This document shows, one piece after another, positions 11,412 through 55,348 of a DNA stretch of 64,000 nucleotides. The notes beneath the pieces are model-generated. The model was not told the origin of the DNA. It did not search any database and saw only the letters and a list, made by a program, of their open reading frames with translations. The DNA lies in contig CAYHDT010000002.1 in NCBI GenBank assembly GCA_964355655.1, positions 15,598-79,597 on the forward strand. Reading direction: 5' to 3'. The translations under genes were made by a program, and so were the position numbers. Within the stretch, counting starts at the first letter, position 1; the number at the start of each line of letters is the position of its first letter. Source of the DNA: an uncultured Candidatus Saccharibacteria bacterium (GTDB lineage Bacteria; Patescibacteriota; Minisyncoccia; Phycocordibacterales; SBAW01).

Positions 11412-12413
11412 GCTTGGCATCATACCCACCTTCCAACTTTTCATCGTGTGGCGGACTGGTACCGCAACCGCGACACCTTCGAGAAAGCGGCTATTAATCT
11501 TATCGCATGGGGAGGTATTTTGTGGATTTTATACGCGGCATTTTTGTCGGCTCCGTTCGGTTTTCCCAGCGGGGCGTACATAAACATAGAAGAGGGGATG
11601 GGGCTGCGGACTATTGCCGCGCGGTTCGAAGAGCGAGGCGTTGTCGGCAACGCCAAGCTTTTTGAGCTTATAACCCGCGTGCTCGGAGACGATAGGTATA
11701 TACCTGCGGGGCAATATTTCTTTTCCCGCAAAGACAATATGGTTTGGATAGCGATGCGGATATTGAGCGGCGATTTTGAGACGTCGCCGATACGCATCAC
11801 GATACCGGAAGGCTCTGCCATAAAGGATATTGTCAAAATTATGGTCAGAAAAGTGCCGGGATTCAGCCGCCAACAATTTGTCGAGCGTGCGCGGGAAGGG
11901 TATATGTTCCCCGACACTTATTTTTTCCGGCCCGGGCAATCTACCGAAGCGATATTGAGCGTGTTCGAAAACAATTTCCGCGTCAAATTGCTTAAAGTGC
12001 AAAAAGAAATTACCGCTTCGGACCACTCGCTCGATGAACTGCTGACAATGGCCTCGATTCTTGAAAAAGAGGCGTCTAAAACAAAAGACCGGCAGCTGAT
12101 AGCCGGGGTCCTGTGGCATCGCATCGACATCGGCATGCCGCTGCAAACAGACGCGACGTTCCCGTACTATCTTGGCCGCAATACGTTTGAAGTGACACTT
12201 GAAGACTTGCGTGCTGACCATCCGTACAATACCTATACCAATAAAGGCCTCCCTCCCGGTCCGATAGGGAACCCGGGGCTGGACTCTATACTGGCCGCCG
12301 CCACGCCCACGAAGACAAAATACGTCTTCTTTCTGTCCGACCGACAGGGAGTCTTCCACTACAGCGTGACATACGAAGGCCACCTGGCCAACAAAAGAAA
12401 ATATTTAGACTAA
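11409..12413 (+). CDS. mltG: Endolytic murein transglycosylase MltG (YceG family)
   Basis: N-terminal TM helix. YceG-like motifs LTMASILEKEASK and PYNTYTNKGLPPGPIGNPG. Confidence 0.85.
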   Translation: MAWHHTHLPTFHRVADWYRNRDTFEKAAINLIAWGGILWILYAAFLSAPFGFPSGAYINIEEGMGLRTIAARFEERGVVGNAKLFELITRVLGDDRYIPAGQYFFSRKDNMVWIAMRILSGDFETSPIRITIPEGSAIKDIVKIMVRKVPGFSRQQFVERAREGYMFPDTYFFRPGQSTEAILSVFENNFRVKLLKVQKEITASDHSLDELLTMASILEKEASKTKDRQLIAGVLWHRIDIGMPLQTDATFPYYLGRNTFEVTLEDLRADHPYNTYTNKGLPPGPIGNPGLDSILAAATPTKTKYVFFLSDRQGVFHYSVTYEGHLANKRKYLD

Positions 12414-12418
12414 TCTGT

Positions 12419-12703
12419 ATGCACTTAACTTCTCTGGAAATAATTCTTATCATCTCTACTGTGCTTGAATTTAACCCGCTATTTCAAGCGGTCAAAAGTA
12501 TTCGGACCAAAAAAGTTAATGATCTTTCGGTGTGGACATTCTTGTCTATTTTTGTAATTGGGGGACTATGGCTGTATTACGGCATCACTATTATGAGCGT
12601 TCCTCTTATTATCGGTAACACCATAAAACTTTTTACCGCATTAGTGGTTATTTTCATTTATTTTAAATACAGAAATAAAAATTTGGCTATAACTGTCAAA
12701 TAA
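12419..12703 (+). CDS. SemiSWEET-like PQ-loop small sugar transporter (3 TM, 94 aa)
   Basis: Architecture matches bacterial SemiSWEETs (NPLFQAVKSIRTKKVNDLS ... WLYYGI ... PLIIGNTIKLFTALVVIF). It sits in a locally AT-rich segment of about 40% GC. Confidence 0.55.
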   Translation: MHLTSLEIILIISTVLEFNPLFQAVKSIRTKKVNDLSVWTFLSIFVIGGLWLYYGITIMSVPLIIGNTIKLFTALVVIFIYFKYRNKNLAITVK

Positions 12704-12816
12704 AAAGATAATTTGGTTCCAACATATTCCCATACTGCCAGCTCGACATTTTAAATATTTTGTTGTAGTGTTTACTTTAGATTAAAAACGCTTCTTCGGG
12801 AGAAAAGGGGAGTTTA

Positions 12817-13104
12817 ATGGACGACAAATATTTATATCCTACGCCCGGGGGATTGTGGGCCATCAGACGCTGGGTTGAGGGCAAATGGATAACCCTTGTC
12901 CAAGATTCTTACATGGACGAGCCGGGGGCTATAGAGGCTATTATGCGCGTGCTGCGCATCCCGCACACTCAAGCGAGTCTTGATCGGTTTTTCCCTGTCC
13001 AAGCCGAGGCGGGCCGGTGTCCAACGTTGGAGCTCATGGAGCTCTGTAATGTGCTGGATCCGACCAACCCGCATATCAAGAACAGGAAGGAGTATGGAGT
13101 ATAG
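12817..13104 (+). CDS. Hypothetical protein (95 aa)
   Basis: ORF only. No motif recognised. Confidence 0.35.
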   Translation: MDDKYLYPTPGGLWAIRRWVEGKWITLVQDSYMDEPGAIEAIMRVLRIPHTQASLDRFFPVQAEAGRCPTLELMELCNVLDPTNPHIKNRKEYGV

Positions 13105-50965: not shown

Positions 50966-51000
50966 AAATAGCAAAACGGCGGAGCTTGTGGGCTCCGCCG
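50965..51000. terminator. Hairpin CGGCGGAGCttgtggGCTCCGCCG; the T-run is on the minus-strand side, so it terminates the 51008-51379(-) ORF
   Basis: 9 bp GC-rich stem. On the plus strand an A-run precedes the hairpin. Confidence 0.5.
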
Positions 51001-51007
51001 CTGACGC

Positions 51008-51379
51008 TTAGTGCGCATATTTTTGATCGAAGTCTTCGCCGACATTACCACCAAGACCATAGTCCTGGGCAATGATGTTGTCGACGCTAAGACCAGCGAC
51101 CATCTTTTGTTCGCTGTTACACCTGGGCTGCATAGCGCCAACCAGCTTCCATTGGTCGTTGTCACCGGCAACGAGGTCACAGAGTACCGTGTCGCTATAC
51201 TGGACCCTTCCCTGATCGTTTGCGATCTGCAGGGTTGCCCGCACCCCTTTGGGACTCTTGTCTTGTGCCAAAGGCGGTTTCGGCATCTTCACGAATAGTG
51301 AGATCATCGTCTTGTCCTCTATGTGTGATGGAAAGGCGGCTTGTGGTGGCTCCGGACAAACCTGCTCTCCATTGTACAC
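51008..51379 (-). CDS. Hypothetical protein (at most 123 aa)
   Basis: Its stop abuts a terminator whose T-run is on this strand. The competing + ORF 51011-51298 is judged less likely. Confidence 0.4.
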   Translation of the reverse strand: MYNGEQVCPEPPQAAFPSHIEDKTMISLFVKMPKPPLAQDKSPKGVRATLQIANDQGRVQYSDTVLCDLVAGDNDQWKLVGAMQPRCNSEQKMVAGLSVDNIIAQDYGLGGNVGEDFDQKYAH

Positions 51380-51455
51380 CTGAAATACCTTTTTGTCAAG
51401 TATAATCCACCAAGCCAGGTAAGACTTTTTTTGCTATAGTTAACGGAACATTTAT

Positions 51456-52742
51456 ATGGAGCGCACTCTTATTGCCGATTTGCAAAACAAAAAAGGGGAG
51501 GCGGTAACCATCCAGGGCTGGGTTAGCGTGCGGCGCGACCAGGGCAAGATGGTATTTTTTGACTTCCGCGACCGCTCGGGCGTGGTACAGGGCGTTACCT
51601 TACCCGCTTCGCCGGCGATAGAAACCGCTAAAGAGGTGCGCAATGAGTACGTGGTTTCGGTCGAAGGCAAGGTCAACGAGCGCCCGGAAAAAAATCGCAA
51701 GGAGGGTGTGCAAAACGGCGATATCGAGTTGGAAGTACTGGGTATAGAAATAATCTCCAAGGCAGAAATTCCGTTTGAGCTGGGCACTGAAGTCAATCTC
51801 GATACGTATCTCGACCACATGCCCTTTACCCTACGGGCAGAAAAGGCGAAGCAGATTTTTAAAGTACAGCAGGCGATAATCGAAGGATTTCGAGAGGGAA
51901 TGAAAGCCCAGGACTTTACCGAATTTCAGGCGCCCGCGCTGGTGGGCGGCGACGCCGAGGGCGGAGCCGCGGCTTTTAAGGTTGACTATTACTACGAGCA
52001 AAAAGCCTACCTAGCAACCAGCCCGCAACTGTACAAACAAATAATGGTGGGTGTTTTTGAAAGGGCTTTTACCACGCCTAAGATATTCCGTGGAGAAAAG
52101 CACGCTACCACGCGCCACCTCAGCGAGTATACATCGCTCGACTTTGAAATGGGTTTTATTAAAGACCATACCGACGTAATGGCCGCGCTGGCGAAGACCA
52201 TGCGAATAATCGTCAAGAAAACGGGTATTGACGTTGCCATACCGGAACAGATTCCTGTATTAAAATTGCGCGAAGTGCAAAAGATACTTGGTGTGGGAGA
52301 GGAGCCCGACCTCGAGCCCGAGCATGAGCGCGCCATTTGCGAGTGGGCGCTGCGTGAGCACAACTCAGATTTTGTGTTTGTGACGCACTACCCCGTCAGC
52401 AAGCGGCCATTCTACACTTACGAAGACGAGGCCGACCCGGGTTTTACCAAAAGTTTTGACCTCCTCTTCCGCGGGCTAGAGATTACGACCGGCGGCCAAC
52501 GCATCCACAACTACGACGCGCTGGTGGCCGCTGCAAAGGCAAAAGGGCTCGACCCAAGCAAGTTTTCTTATTATCTGGAGACGTTTAAAGTCGGCATGCC
52601 GCCGCACGGCGGCTCGGCCACGGGGCTCGAGCGCCTGACCGCCCGCTTGCTTAACCTCCCCAATGTCAAAGAAGCAACTCTCTTCCCCCGCGACCTCAAC
52701 CGCATCGACATCCTCCTCTCGACAGATAAAAAAGAAGAATAA
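51456..52742 (+). CDS. aspS: Aspartyl-tRNA synthetase, archaeal/eukaryal type (probably non-discriminating)
   Basis: N-terminal OB fold. Class II motifs include FRGLEITTGGQRIHN, VGMPPHGGSATGLERL and TLFPRD, which match archaeal-type AspRS rather than AsnRS. Confidence 0.8.
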   Translation: MERTLIADLQNKKGEAVTIQGWVSVRRDQGKMVFFDFRDRSGVVQGVTLPASPAIETAKEVRNEYVVSVEGKVNERPEKNRKEGVQNGDIELEVLGIEIISKAEIPFELGTEVNLDTYLDHMPFTLRAEKAKQIFKVQQAIIEGFREGMKAQDFTEFQAPALVGGDAEGGAAAFKVDYYYEQKAYLATSPQLYKQIMVGVFERAFTTPKIFRGEKHATTRHLSEYTSLDFEMGFIKDHTDVMAALAKTMRIIVKKTGIDVAIPEQIPVLKLREVQKILGVGEEPDLEPEHERAICEWALREHNSDFVFVTHYPVSKRPFYTYEDEADPGFTKSFDLLFRGLEITTGGQRIHNYDALVAAAKAKGLDPSKFSYYLETFKVGMPPHGGSATGLERLTARLLNLPNVKEATLFPRDLNRIDILLSTDKKEE

Positions 52743-52750
52743 ACTTCTAT

Positions 52751-53518
52751 ATGCTTGAAAAAATTTCTTCAACAATCAAAGATTTTTTAGGGGATTCAAA
52801 TGAATTTATCGAATCAGCAACAATAGCCGCGGAAGACAGAATAACTTCCCCTTTTTACGGTTATTTCCTTATTTCCTGGTTTATATTTAACTGGAAAATT
52901 GTATATGTAGCTTTCTTTATTGATCAAACCAAACTTTATGAAAAAACAGGCTTGTTGCGTAATGAATATTTAAATTCTATAATCCCCTCGCACTTGAGTT
53001 GGAATTTTTGGTTCTATTTTGCTATTTGTCCTTTTTTACTGACGGTGTTCTTCTTTTGGATATCACCATATTTTACTCGACATTTCTTTAGGAAAAATAT
53101 CCGGAATAAAAAACAATTAAAAATAATTGAACTCCAAGAAAGTCAGGAGGTAAAGAAAGAGGAAAAGGCTTTAGTAAAAGCTGAAACCGCACTCATTGAA
53201 GAGAAGGTAGAAAAAGTTAAACGCGAAAAAAAAGCTGTAAAAGAAACTCCTGAAGTTATTTGGGAAAATGAATTTGAAATTTTTAGAAAGCACCCAATCT
53301 ATAGTGGAATGGATAGCCTAAAAAAAATACTTTATGAAAGAAGCGGCCTGACACGGGAATGGGATGGTAATCAGTATCGTCTCATGATTAACTCTGATAT
53401 CTTGGCTGCTGCAGACTCAAGAGGGCTAGTAGAAATTCAGGGTAGTGGAAAATTAGAAAAAATTGAACTTACACCAAAAGGAAAATTTTTTATGGCAAAA
53501 TTCTTGGAAGGAAAATAA
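52751..53518 (+). CDS. Hypothetical membrane/coiled-coil protein (255 aa) encoded in low-GC DNA
   Basis: TM helices followed by a Lys/Glu-rich coiled coil. Local GC is about 27-42%. Confidence 0.5.
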   Translation: MLEKISSTIKDFLGDSNEFIESATIAAEDRITSPFYGYFLISWFIFNWKIVYVAFFIDQTKLYEKTGLLRNEYLNSIIPSHLSWNFWFYFAICPFLLTVFFFWISPYFTRHFFRKNIRNKKQLKIIELQESQEVKKEEKALVKAETALIEEKVEKVKREKKAVKETPEVIWENEFEIFRKHPIYSGMDSLKKILYERSGLTREWDGNQYRLMINSDILAAADSRGLVEIQGSGKLEKIELTPKGKFFMAKFLEGK

Positions 53519-53524
53519 CGCCGA

Positions 53525-53878
53525 ATGAAACTCGTGTACAAAACTGCAGCAGAGGGTATATTTCTGCTCCACCTCTGCTTAGTTTTGCTTGTTGTGTTTT
53601 TTGGTTGGTATATACCCGCGCTGTGGCCCTGGTATGTGGCGGCGCTCGTTGCCACACTCGTCTCAGACCTCTTGTTCGGCTACTGCATACTCAGCAAATG
53701 GGAGTTTGATCTACGGCGCAAGGTCAACCCCGACACCGACTACGATTTTGCCTGGGCGACTTACTACACCTACAAAATTACCAACAAACGCATCTCCAAC
53801 GTTTTGTATTGGCGATTATCGATATTCTTTCTAACTGCGTCTCTCGGTATCAGTCTCTACTCCCGTTTTTTTATATAA
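53525..53878 (+). CDS. Small membrane protein (117 aa), hypothetical
   Basis: 3-4 TM helices. Lies in the low-GC insert. Confidence 0.45.
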   Translation: MKLVYKTAAEGIFLLHLCLVLLVVFFGWYIPALWPWYVAALVATLVSDLLFGYCILSKWEFDLRRKVNPDTDYDFAWATYYTYKITNKRISNVLYWRLSIFFLTASLGISLYSRFFI

Positions 53879-53936
53879 ATTAGCAAGATTTAGGAAAAAT
53901 TGACAACAAAAATTAGATAGTTTAAATTATCCCCAG

Positions 53937-54440
53937 TTGTTATCCAACCCAACCTGGGAGGAATTAATGTCCAAAATATCCGCAGTCGTGCCTGGTTTTA
54001 TATCCTACGAGGAGACTGACGGTCTGCTTGGTGTTGCCGTTGAGCTCTTTCGTGCCGGCAGTGGCGAAAACGTTGTCCGGGTTTCCCATGAATGGCTCAT
54101 GCAGATTAATAAAGTCGCCGGCTATAATTACGGCCGTCTTTCGGTGGTCATGCATCCGCAAGCTTTTACCGGCTACCAAGGCCAGCGCGGAATCTCTATT
54201 TCTATCGTACCGGGCAACTTTGACGGAAAGCTGAGCGAAGCCGAAAAAGACTTTCGAGAGCCGTTGCGGCCGTACCAATTGGGCAACTACGGTCATGCTG
54301 GTGGTTCTGGCTTCCATGAGGGAGTCTTTACCATCGATACCAACCTCGATGACGCCATTCGGTTGCATAAGGCTCTTGGCAAAGTCATCGCCAACGCGAA
54401 GCGTCTCGGCAAAAAACCGAAGCTCAAAAGCGCCGCCTAA
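53937..54440 (+). CDS. Hypothetical protein (167 aa)
   Basis: ORF of normal GC content. Followed by a terminator. Confidence 0.45.
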   Translation: MLSNPTWEELMSKISAVVPGFISYEETDGLLGVAVELFRAGSGENVVRVSHEWLMQINKVAGYNYGRLSVVMHPQAFTGYQGQRGISISIVPGNFDGKLSEAEKDFREPLRPYQLGNYGHAGGSGFHEGVFTIDTNLDDAIRLHKALGKVIANAKRLGKKPKLKSAA

Positions 54441-54452
54441 CTTGTTTCGAGC

Positions 54453-54477
54453 TCCTGTTTTTCAACAGGAGTTTTTA
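54453..54477 (+). terminator. Intrinsic terminator
   Basis: CTCCTGtttttcaaCAGGAG followed by TTTTT. Confidence 0.6.
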
Positions 54478-54480
54478 TAT

Positions 54481-54597
54481 AAACTGGAGCGCCTGACCGC
54501 CCGCCTGCTTAACCTCCCCAATGTCAAAGAAGCAACTCTCTTCCCCCGCGACCTAAATAGAATCGACACCCTGTTGAGTACCGATAAAGGAGAATAG
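54481..54597 (+). pseudogene. Duplicated 3'-terminal fragment of aspS (encodes ...LERLTARLLNLPNVKEATLFPRDLNRIDTLLSTDKGE*)
   Basis: About 72 nt are near-identical (2 mismatches) to 52625-52697. The tail encodes the same peptide with mostly synonymous, AT-shifted codons. No upstream catalytic domain. Confidence 0.7.
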
Positions 54598-54664: not shown

Positions 54665-55048
54665 ATGAGCACCTTCACGAGACAAGATTTCATTGATGCG
54701 GCTCTGCGCCTCAATTGGGAGTGGGTGGACAAGAACCTTAACGACGGGGACATCACCCCCGATGATATTCTTTGGGCCACAACTACCGGCATAAAGGACG
54801 CCAGCAAAGATATCCGCGACCTGGCGGCGACCTATCTCACCACATCGGTCCTGCCGCTCGCGCTTGAAGACGAGCGCAAGCTCGTACGGGTGATGCTGAC
54901 AGACCCGTACCATATCGTTCAATACCGCCTGGCGATCGCGCTCTACAAGCGCGGCAACCGCATCGTCGAAGTTGTAAATATGTTTCAGAAAGCTCTCGAC
55001 GACGAGGATGTCGGCCGGGTCGCGTTCACATATAAAGCCGCCGCGTGA
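54665..55048 (+). CDS. Hypothetical protein (127 aa), possibly helical-repeat
   Basis: ORF followed by a terminator. No motif. Confidence 0.45.
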   Translation: MSTFTRQDFIDAALRLNWEWVDKNLNDGDITPDDILWATTTGIKDASKDIRDLAATYLTTSVLPLALEDERKLVRVMLTDPYHIVQYRLAIALYKRGNRIVEVVNMFQKALDDEDVGRVAFTYKAAA

Positions 55049-55060
55049 GCGGCCTTATCA

Positions 55061-55083
55061 GCCGCCCAAGGGCGGCTTTTTTA
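55061..55083 (+). terminator. Intrinsic terminator
   Basis: GCCGCCCaagGGCGGC followed by TTTTTT. Confidence 0.65.
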
Positions 55084-55091
55084 CTTCGCAA

Positions 55092-55262
55092 AATAAAAAA
55101 CACCGGACTGAGCCGGTGCTGTGATAATAAGGCAGGTCCCCAAGGCTCGACGCGCTGGTAAGGAGGTAGGAACCGAGGGGACCCGTACTTTCTCCAGGAT
55201 CTCTCACCGGAGCGGGCAGGTTGGAACCTGGCCGTTTCACTCTCCTCCTCCTAGCTGAATCC
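55092..55262 (-). ncRNA. Candidate small structured RNA (about 170 nt) with its own intrinsic terminator; identity unresolved (SRP or 6S-like?)
   Basis: Minus-strand terminator CACCGGctcagtCCGGTG plus a T-run at 55092-55118. Upstream lie extended complementary segments (GGTCCCC/GGGGACC, CCGGTG/CACCGG). No ORF. Convergent with the + strand terminator. Confidence 0.35.
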
Positions 55263-55348
55263 ACAAACACTCTAGCATTATTTAATACAAAAACAAAAGC
55301 TAAACCGGCCTTTTGTTTTTGTTGAAAATGTTGTCTTTTAAAGGTATA

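Follow-up and report, generated by a model that had tools for sequence, protein, structure and literature searches.

A three-gene islet between two copies of the aspS 3' end in a groundwater Parcubacterium

How does an uncultured bacterium with a tiny genome come to carry two ends of the same essential gene, with other genes between them? The window analysed here (the whole stretch of DNA under study, 64 kb) comes from a groundwater Parcubacterium and contains an islet of 1.7 kb, with three genes and a terminator, between two copies of the 3' end of aspS, the aspartyl-tRNA synthetase gene. We give roughly even odds (probability about 0.5) to the reading that accessory genes linked to aspS in a relative entered here by a homology-anchored insertion, and that the locus is the scar left when the resident 3' end was displaced.

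The 3' end of aspS is duplicated around three genes

The aspS gene is a complete open reading frame whose C-terminus matches those of relatives and whose last 117 nt form repeat copy A (Table 1). Its product is 57-88% identical to the AspRS of about 160 Parcubacteria. The direct repeat (52626-52736 and 54484-54594) is 111 nt long with 86% identity and a start-to-start spacing of 1858, and it is the sole long direct repeat within the window. Both copies run on in frame to stop codons, ending at 52742 (A) and 54597 (B). A preliminary description, made from the sequence alone, had reported a near-perfect repeat of the aspS end with tails that diverge but share a peptide, and we found both again: there are 2 mismatches, at repeat positions 3 and 22, over the first 71 nt against 12 over the following 34, and the tails spell out LNRID(I/T)LLSTDK(K/G)E in largely synonymous codons. 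In codons 24-33, 12 of the 13 differences between A and B are of the synonymous type. At the left edge of copy B (between 54483 and 54484) the terminator region abuts CTGGAG in a putatively illegitimate junction, and the islet ends about 5 nt beyond the T-run of the ORFC terminator.

Table 1. Features of the aspS locus, with positions in the 64-kb window.
Feature	Position	Strand	Description
aspS	51456..52742	+	428-aa archaeal/eukaryal-type AspRS; Pfam tRNA-synt_2 (2.2e-73), tRNA_anti-codon
Repeat copy A	52626..52742	+	functional aspS 3' end (LERL...STDKKEE, then stop)
49-nt block identical in A and B	52648..52696 = 54506-54554	+	likely crossover or conversion tract
Copy A tail	from 52697	+	TCG-type allele; L097/L099 closest
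ORFA	52751..53518	+	255 aa, GC 0.33, GC3 0.28; start 8 nt past the aspS stop codon
ORFB	53525..53878	+	117 aa, small membrane protein; GC 0.47, GC3 0.60
Promoter-like site ahead of ORFC	53900..53928	+	TTGACA-17-TAAATT; consensus match only
ORFC	53967..54440	+	157 aa, GC 0.53, GC3 0.58; rare family
Intrinsic terminator of ORFC	54449..54478	+	hairpin -14.3 kcal/mol, z = -4.5, U-run after
Repeat copy B	54484..54597	+	displaced aspS 3' pseudogene fragment, equivalent to codons 391-428, without upstream aspS sequence
Copy B tail	within 54484..54597	+	TTG-AGT-type allele; L011, L116, L183 closest
ORFD	54665..55048	+	127 aa, HEAT-like (PF13646 in a homolog); right flank of the duplication

Exactly the same order of aspS, islet and copy B was recovered from each of three replicate metagenomes of Hainich well H52 that had been assembled independently (L081, L082, L086), and from the source contig. 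Because the longest run identical between A and B (49 nt) is shorter than the usual assembly k-mers, an assembly artefact is unlikely. An assembly join is also unlikely, as each of the three independent assemblies contains the point where the ORFC terminator meets the aspS fragment. Coverage is low, about 4-5x, and at 52647 one replicate assembly carries a variant that brings copy A closer to copy B.

The islet is composite. ORFB and ORFC are host-like in codon usage and composition, and among the three genes only ORFA is strongly low in GC. The two low-GC genes of the preliminary description thus come down to one, and its third gene and terminator are ORFC and the hairpin that follows. ORFA is a foreign gene which inserts on its own in other Parcubacteria: of its 17 homologs, the named ones all belong to Parcubacteria/Paceibacterota and lie in unrelated contexts, and no direct repeats were found around solitary copies in other genomes. 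Its AF2 model (pLDDT 81) has two transmembrane helices, a helix of about 80 residues and a C-terminal winged-helix-like domain, and a fold search with this model returned weak winged-helix matches only; the N-terminal part matches PHROG 4780/13369. ORFB reaches 28 bits against DUF2784 (PF10861), below the curated cut-off. ORFB begins 6 nt after ORFA, so that a common transcript with aspS and ORFA is probable. The ORFC family has 31 representatives among 1.8 billion proteins. Neither ORFC nor the longer members of its family have a match in Pfam, PADLOC or NCBIfam, a sequence search of the PDB with ORFC gave no match, and its AF2 model was poor and unfit for a structure search. No recombinase was detected in ORFA, ORFB or ORFC by Pfam, PHROGs, PADLOC or NCBIfam; there is a small chance that ORFC, or ORFA with its membrane and winged-helix parts, acts in recombination or mobility and has escaped recognition. 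To the right of the duplication, ORFD is an accessory gene that the closest relatives lack, and its codon usage is the most host-like of all genes tested. A structured RNA in 55050-55312 was considered and rejected, with no Rfam match and a fold no better than that of shuffled sequence.

Repeat mosaicism and the aspS loci of relatives

Over repeat positions 1-71, copies A and B are 2 nt apart and are each other's closest known sequence; no sequence among 160 relatives comes nearer than 5-6 nt to either. Over positions 72-105 they are 12 nt apart, with A 2 nt from L097/L099 and B 6 nt from L011/L116/L183. Such a combination is foreign to natural aspS pairs: every one of the 5125 pairs with at least 12 tail differences had 9 or more differences upstream (Fisher p = 1.4e-6). 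The A and B tails derive from two different functional aspS alleles: nearly all of their differences are synonymous, and the relatives that they match are not the same. The abrupt switch in identity around the 49-nt block, which overlaps the KEATLFPRD codons that are almost invariant across the clade, is the trace expected from a homologous crossover or a heteroduplex tract.

The duplication is restricted to this lineage, in line with the insertion at the 3' end of aspS that the preliminary description had proposed. At the aspS loci of about 160 relatives we found no second copy of the aspS end and none of ORFA, ORFB or ORFC nearby; in most of them, pepA or scpA lies within 0-50 nt of aspS. 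The empty arrangement that had been suggested as a check, with aspS followed directly by a homolog of ORFD, is present in L016. An ORFC-family gene adjoins aspS in L183/L184, where the gene order is dnaJ-trpS-aspS-ORFC-like-...-pepA, and since this gene is only 37% identical to the ORFC of the islet, the shared position next to aspS could be coincidence. In other genomes, neither ORFA nor ORFB was found beside aspS.

Co-transfer of an aspS end with downstream DNA recurs among the relatives. Divergence between L096 and L184 is 5.4% in the aspS core and 19.7% in the last ~120 nt (p ~ 7e-7), and their aspS ends share an identical 47-nt middle block at the same position as the block in the islet repeat. 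L184 has an insert after aspS, and L096 has pepA 3 nt after it. The pair is an independent case of an aspS end transferred together with the DNA behind it. A common mobile cargo behind the AGT-type tails was rejected, as the downstream genes, none of them an integrase, vary by lineage (SET domain, amine oxidase, M20 peptidase, MurD). In ten relatives, the scanned gap genes belong to ordinary metabolic families or have no Pfam match, and none is a recombinase.

We also looked for the partners of the proposed event. An empty site in the same species was not found: this AspRS stands alone in its 90% cluster, and the protein collection does not contain the AspRS that an empty site with the B tail would be predicted to encode. 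The donor arrangement (aspS with an A-type tail, then ORFA, ORFB and ORFC, and no duplication) was not found either, nor was a further copy of the islet elsewhere. The exact 35-nt core, sought as a mark of an empty site or an excised circle, had no match in viral and metagenome contigs.

How the islet may have been inserted

The reading that we prefer starts from DNA of a related Parcubacterium, which would have brought the terminal part of its aspS and the accessory genes downstream of that aspS. Recombination between this incoming DNA and the resident chromosome would have taken place within the strongly conserved block of aspS that encodes motif 3 and the C-terminus. The gene would have stayed intact, its 5' 1170 nt being joined to a replacement tail that is followed by ORFA-ORFB-ORFC and the terminator, and the former resident 3' end (copy B) would have been shifted 1.86 kb downstream to remain as a dead fragment before ORFD. 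Most probably the exchange was of the RecA type rather than integrase-catalysed, and it may have gone through a single crossover with a circular intermediate or through homology-facilitated illegitimate recombination. We infer this mechanism, its direction and the order of acquisition. Displacement is favoured by the continuity of the conserved 5' part of aspS with the new end and the new genes, by the retention of the old end downstream, and by a breakpoint that falls in a highly conserved nucleotide block. The discordance between tail types and the phylogeny of the aspS core speaks for recombination as well. Homology-facilitated illegitimate recombination with displacement of 3' ends has precedents in T6SS and Rhs loci (PMC5361080). 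After a simple Campbell-type crossover with a diverged donor, one of the two 71-nt segments would be the donor's and the other the resident's. Their near-identity then calls for an extra assumption: the donor may have been conspecific, the resident segment may have been duplicated, or gene conversion may have followed.

Whenever DNA is inserted in one event, the downstream copy keeps its tail joined to the resident flank; copy B should thus be the resident's original end, and the import should be the tail that aspS carries today. In the annotation of E. coli K-12, the e14 element includes the last 165 nt of icd and the icdC fragment lies just outside the element. The A tail has 2 differences in 34 nt from L097/L099 despite a core divergence of ~23%, which fits an import. 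Codon usage points the opposite way, with a host-typical A tail (72nd percentile) and an atypical B tail (1.3rd percentile) that carries CTA, AGA and AGT. These codons are rare in the genome, which is odd for a resident sequence; each recurs at the same position in close relatives, for example L098, L001, L011 and L183. The aspS core is ~23% distant from all near relatives, about equally, and the tail types are scattered over the aspS tree in discordance with the core phylogeny, so that phylogeny favours neither tail as the native one. The preliminary description had derived the spare end from the aspS of a different host. Its view that two alleles are involved stands, and what appears to be its assignment of the copies runs against the insertion topology, although codon usage sides with it.

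The anatomy of the locus is equally like an integrase-made attL/attR pair, as at e14/icd. A decayed site-specific integrative element, of the e14/phage 21-icd or ICE-lysS type, is possible but doubtful. A tyrosine or serine integrase would have used an attP site that carried an aspS 3' end, the repeats would be attL and attR, and the integrase and most of the element would later have been deleted, leaving three cargo genes. The repeats do bound the insert and the target gene is kept whole, as in e14/icd; housekeeping genes, lysS among them, are documented as targets of integration at their 3' ends (PMC4701971), and ORFA is compositionally foreign with an N-terminal domain that matches phage protein families. 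However, we found no integrase, excisionase, transposase or other mobile-element gene in the islet or in the flanks scanned (about 41.1-64 kb, ~10 kb on each side), where all genes are housekeeping genes. Islet DNA had no match among plasmids and the ORFA protein had none among phages, and the search of IMG/VR gave a single distant match, to the N-terminal domain of ORFA; in the comparison with phage and plasmid databases that the preliminary description had suggested, and in viral contigs, no similar element was found. Comparable integrations are present in 0 of about 160 relatives, and the codon usage of ORFB and ORFC is host-like. Repeats of 111 nt far exceed the 13-17 bp of lysS ICEs (PMC4701971), and under a fixed crossover a near-identical 71 nt next to a 35%-diverged tail needs an extra assumption, whereas the differences in e14/icd are spread evenly. 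The preliminary description's finding that no integrase remains is borne out, its decayed element is doubtful, and homologous recombination fits at least as well, given the mosaic repeat and the aspS-linked relative of ORFC. A transposon or insertion sequence with a target-site duplication was rejected: there is no transposase, no terminal inverted repeats were found at the islet ends, and the repeat is 111 nt long and diverged.

It is unlikely that the A tail is native and the downstream copy foreign. In that case copy B, perhaps together with ORFD, would have hitch-hiked from an AT-richer or otherwise different lineage, and ORFB and ORFC would be old neighbours of aspS. The percentiles of the two tails, the host-like composition of ORFB and ORFC, the ORFC-family gene beside aspS in L183/L184 and the patchy distribution of ORFD, which follows aspS in L016, all agree with this course of events. 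It would require imported DNA that is near-identical to the resident over 71 nt and yet 35% diverged in its tail, so that gene conversion is needed here too. In addition, ORFD has the most host-like codon usage of the genes tested, the rare codons of B recur in relatives, and the closeness of A to L097/L099 fits A as the import.

That there is no insertion scar at all, and that a local tandem duplication diverged later or an assembly error joined two strains or an episome, is very unlikely: the low coverage and the variant at 52647 would agree with it, but the replicate assemblies with their common terminator junction and the identical run of only 49 nt argue against a mis-assembly, and neutral decay of a local duplicate was rejected outright because it would not yield almost purely synonymous differences and tails that match distinct natural alleles.

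Relation to known systems

On the reading as a homology-anchored insertion, the locus is a known type of recombination scar and no new molecular system. In anatomy it matches the integration of the cryptic prophage e14 / phage 21 into icd of E. coli K-12. There, too, an essential protein-coding gene has received the insertion at its 3' end, the replacement end differs mostly synonymously from the old one, and the old end survives at the far side of the insert. The e14/icd repeat is 165 nt long with 12 mostly synonymous differences, which make 2 amino-acid changes and are spread evenly, in contrast to the differences of the islet repeat, which are concentrated in its last 40 nt. The element e14 comprises 15 kb with intE and xisE, whereas the islet comprises 1.7 kb with no recombinase found, and its cargo lacks prophage genes, unlike that of e14.

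Streptococcal ICEs and IMEs sit in the 3' ends of lysS, rpsI, rplL, guaA and rpmG (PMC4701971). They share with the islet the use of a conserved housekeeping-gene 3' end, including that of an aminoacyl-tRNA synthetase gene, as well as a gene that remains functional and flanking direct repeats (PMC4701971). The kind of target that the preliminary description had emphasised, a protein-coding synthetase gene, thus has a precedent in lysS. In the streptococcal elements there are tyrosine integrases as well as modules for conjugation or mobilisation (PMC4701971), of which the islet has none.

Displacement in Rhs, CdiA and T6SS effector-immunity loci resembles the islet in other respects. In those loci the conserved upstream part of a gene is the recombination anchor, a new 3' end is installed with linked genes and no dedicated recombinase, and the former end becomes a downstream orphan that keeps part of the conserved stretch (PMC5361080 and references therein). 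The displaced ends of these loci encode different toxins and diversify function, whereas both ends at the islet encode essentially the same AspRS C-terminus; displacement here thus looks like a by-product of gaining the neighbouring accessory genes.

The locus offers a clean, datable case in which uncultured Patescibacteria with tiny genomes gain accessory genes beside essential genes and leave these undamaged, and it suggests that recombination can be anchored in the conserved ends of genes without an integrase. Because near-identical repeats of 49-71 nt allow scarless loss of the islet, the locus could serve as a marker of gene flux at strain level in the groundwater population of Hainich.

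A broader role, in which the aspS 3' end is a regular integrase-free 'homology handle' in Parcubacteria and tails and cassettes are swapped or stacked between lineages, seems to us improbable. Hints in its direction are the scattered tail types, the matching breakpoint of L096/L184 and the recurrence of TTG-AGT tails with inserts. The association of this tail variant with downstream inserts (10/13 versus 44/125, uncorrected p = 0.006) is a lead only.

Duplication of the aspS 3' end

The last 117 nt of aspS (52626-52742, copy A) are present again downstream as a displaced fragment (copy B), and between the copies lies an islet of three genes, ORFA, ORFB and ORFC, with a terminator. Our repeat finder returned 111 nt of 86% identity at a spacing of 1858 nt, the sole long direct repeat within the 64-kb window. 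In the alignment the copies differ at 2 of positions 1-71 (repeat positions 3 and 22), as in the preliminary description, and the 34 positions that follow have 12 differences. The similarity has an abrupt left edge, with aspS sequence 5' of copy A and the terminator of the preceding gene 5' of copy B. Each copy stays in frame down to the stop codon and encodes LERLTARLLNLPNVKEATLFPRDLNRID(I/T)LLSTDK(K/G)E, and 12 of the 13 nucleotide differences across codons 24-33 are synonymous-type; the diverged tails still encode essentially the same protein end. The arrangement was also found in three replicate metagenomes from the Hainich groundwater well H52 (L081, L082 and L086). We take the duplication structure as real because it is the same base for base, bar one SNP, in these separate assemblies and because the longest identical run between A and B is only 49 nt. 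In L082 (position 1016; 52647 in the window), repeat position 22 of copy A reads C instead of T and so equals the copy B base; this may hint at gene conversion, at a coverage of only about 4x, but could also reflect variation in the population or an effect of low coverage on the assembly.

Features of the aspS locus (window positions)
Feature	Position	Description
aspS	51456-52742	complete 428-aa class II AspRS
ORFA	52751-53518	starts 8 nt past the aspS stop; GC 0.33, GC3 0.28
ORFB	53525-53878	starts 6 nt past ORFA; small membrane protein, sub-threshold DUF2784 match
ORFC	53967-54440	promoter-like site ahead; good intrinsic terminator at end
Copy B	54484-54597	displaced aspS fragment, between the ORFC terminator and ORFD
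ORFD	54665-55048	HEAT-like; 3' of copy B, followed by pepA, scpA and scpB

Gene content and distribution of the insertion

The cargo genes of the islet are without known function. Two of them had been described as lying in low-GC DNA; this holds for a single gene, ORFA, the most extreme low-GC patch of the window, and codon usage is host-like in ORFB, ORFC and ORFD. The second-lowest GC patch is at 12401-13000 (0.39 vs about 0.54 elsewhere). None of the islet ORFs matched an integrase, transposase, phage or defence family, and a search of the islet ends found no inverted repeats. The flank genes scanned (about 41.1-64 kb) were all housekeeping (rpsD, rpoA, grpE, dnaK, ABC transporter, trpS, pepA, dacA, mraY, ftsW, murG and gltX; by position the region also includes dnaJ, scpA and scpB), in line with the earlier statement that no integrase remains.

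The 17 homologs of ORFA, the named ones from Parcubacteria/Paceibacterota, are at unrelated places. Solitary low-GC genes of this family occur in other Parcubacteria (L090, L094 and L092:8001-8762), and in L092 the gene is placed exactly between purM and purC, 9 nt from either neighbour, at a GC of about 0.30 against a background of 0.45 and without flanking repeats. ORFA behaves as a solitary mobile gene, which makes the islet probably composite. The ORFC family is rare: 4 homologs are close to ORFC, and 31 representatives turned up in a set of 1.8 billion proteins. One of the family immediately follows aspS in the relatives L183 and L184 (dnaJ-trpS-aspS-ORFC-like-198 aa-pepA), whose AspRS is 83% identical to that of the host and whose ORFC is only 37% identical. 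Their ORFC-like gene occurs in unrelated contexts too. In addition, in L185:962-4116 an identical 164-aa protein is preceded by IS30-like/rve transposase genes, not aspS, and the sequence is similar to L184 from about 27 nt ahead of the gene. The nearest homolog of ORFC, at 54% identity (L087:1-438), is downstream of a putative tRNA gene whose sequence shows a GGTTCGAGTCC-type T-arm.

The host organism is a Parcubacterium (Paceibacteria), and its AspRS is 57-88% identical to those encoded at 160 loci that were retrieved from genome and metagenome sequences. These relatives keep the gene order trpS-aspS-pepA and/or scpA-scpB. The gap from aspS to the next gene is 0-50 nt in most genomes, yet variable, and holds, by lineage, SET domain, amine oxidase, M29 and M20 peptidase, MurD, EamA or beta-lactamase genes, with no recombinase among them. 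In none of the relatives is the aspS end duplicated or ORFA, ORFB or ORFC present at the aspS locus, and in L016 an ORFD homolog is directly 3' of aspS, an empty site of the kind the preliminary description had suggested looking for. The insertion is thus lineage-specific. The trpS-aspS spacer (50966-51455, 490 nt) looks like another variable spot, spanning a few nt in many relatives and 430-680 nt in some; in the host it contains a minus-strand ORF of 123 aa (51008-51379), which matched no family and has a promoter-like site and a terminator of its own. Both strands of the 260-nt ORFD-pepA intergenic region (55050-55312) carry terminator-like hairpins; Rfam gave no hit even at E <= 1, the fold is not better than shuffles (z = -1.5), and no conservation was seen in relatives.

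Origin of the two tails and mechanism of insertion

Over positions 1-71, copies A and B are mutually the nearest known sequences, with 2 differences, whereas each of the 160 relatives is at least 5-6 differences away. Over positions 72-105, A is 2 differences from the relatives L097/L099 and 12 from B, and the nearest relatives of B (L011, L116/117 and L183) are each 6 differences away. Of 5125 natural pairs of aspS ends whose tails differ at 12 or more positions, none had <9 upstream differences (Fisher p = 1.4e-6). The tails of A and B therefore derive from two different functional aspS alleles, and their first about 70 nt have a single-lineage origin or have been homogenised.

The displaced copy had been ascribed to a different host. 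The codon usage of the B tail counts against B as the resident end: its codons CTA, AGA and AGT are rare in the host genome (1.3rd percentile), and the A tail is typical. Every one of these rare codons is shared, at the equivalent position, by one or other close relative. However, in any single insertion the tail of the downstream copy stays joined to the resident flank, so that B should be the former resident end and the tail that aspS now carries the import, the reverse of what the preliminary description seems to say. An imported A tail is also consistent with its unusual nearness to L097/L099 despite aspS cores about 23% diverged. We lean towards copy B as the resident end, at odds of roughly 3:1; the same assignment applies to e14, the cryptic prophage in the icd 3' end of E. 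coli K-12, where the downstream fragment is the resident's old end.

The generic reading first described, in which foreign DNA entered the 3' end of aspS and supplied a substitute for it, is well supported; the driver of the insertion is less certain. We favour homologous, RecA-type recombination, whose anchor would be the highly conserved part of aspS that encodes motif 3 and the C-terminus. It could proceed by one crossover through a circular intermediate or by homology-facilitated illegitimate recombination. We favour it because it accounts for the identical central block amid diverged sequence, for the absence of a recombinase, for ORFB and ORFC being host-like in composition, and for the linkage of an ORFC relative to aspS. 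A homology-facilitated mechanism has been proposed for 3'-end displacement at T6SS and Rhs loci (PMC5361080), and transformation generates duplications (PMC3784515), to which the mechanism at the host locus may be related. The weak points of homologous recombination are that searches for a donor arrangement and for a conspecific empty site found neither, and that the near-identical first 71 nt need an added assumption, namely a conspecific donor, duplication of a resident segment or later gene conversion.

The main rival is the decayed integrase-driven element of the preliminary description. The anatomy of e14/icd is a perfect precedent, with an annotated start 165 nt before the icd stop, a 165-nt icdC fragment just outside the far end, and a repeat with 12 differences, mostly synonymous; the lysS 3' end, moreover, is a known target of ICEs (PMC4701971). 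But e14 retains intE and xisE, whereas nothing mobile was found at the host locus, and the e14/icd differences are evenly spread, whereas those of the host repeat are mosaic. The original observation is confirmed and its interpretation partly supported. The host locus is an ordinary, if tidy, recombination scar that joins the known class of gene-end replacement and displacement, in an uncultured Parcubacterium.

Changes at aspS ends in other lineages

L096 and L184, which are closely related, diverge by 5.4% over the aspS core and by 19.7% over the last ~120 nt (p ~ 7e-7). Counted from the LERL codon, their differences lie at -4 to +41 and +89 to +107 and flank a 47-nt identical block; L184 has an insert 3' of aspS, and in L096 pepA is 3 nt from aspS. 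The pair is an independent case of an aspS end and downstream DNA changing together, with the geometry of the host locus. Tail types (TCN vs AGT serine codon) are scattered across the aspS core tree. The tail variant TTG AGT ACN GAT AA turns up repeatedly in lineages from different parts of that tree (L001, L011, L116/117 and L183/184). It is associated with inserts 3' of aspS (10/13 vs 44/125, p = 0.006 without correction for phylogeny), and these carry different cargo in different lineages.
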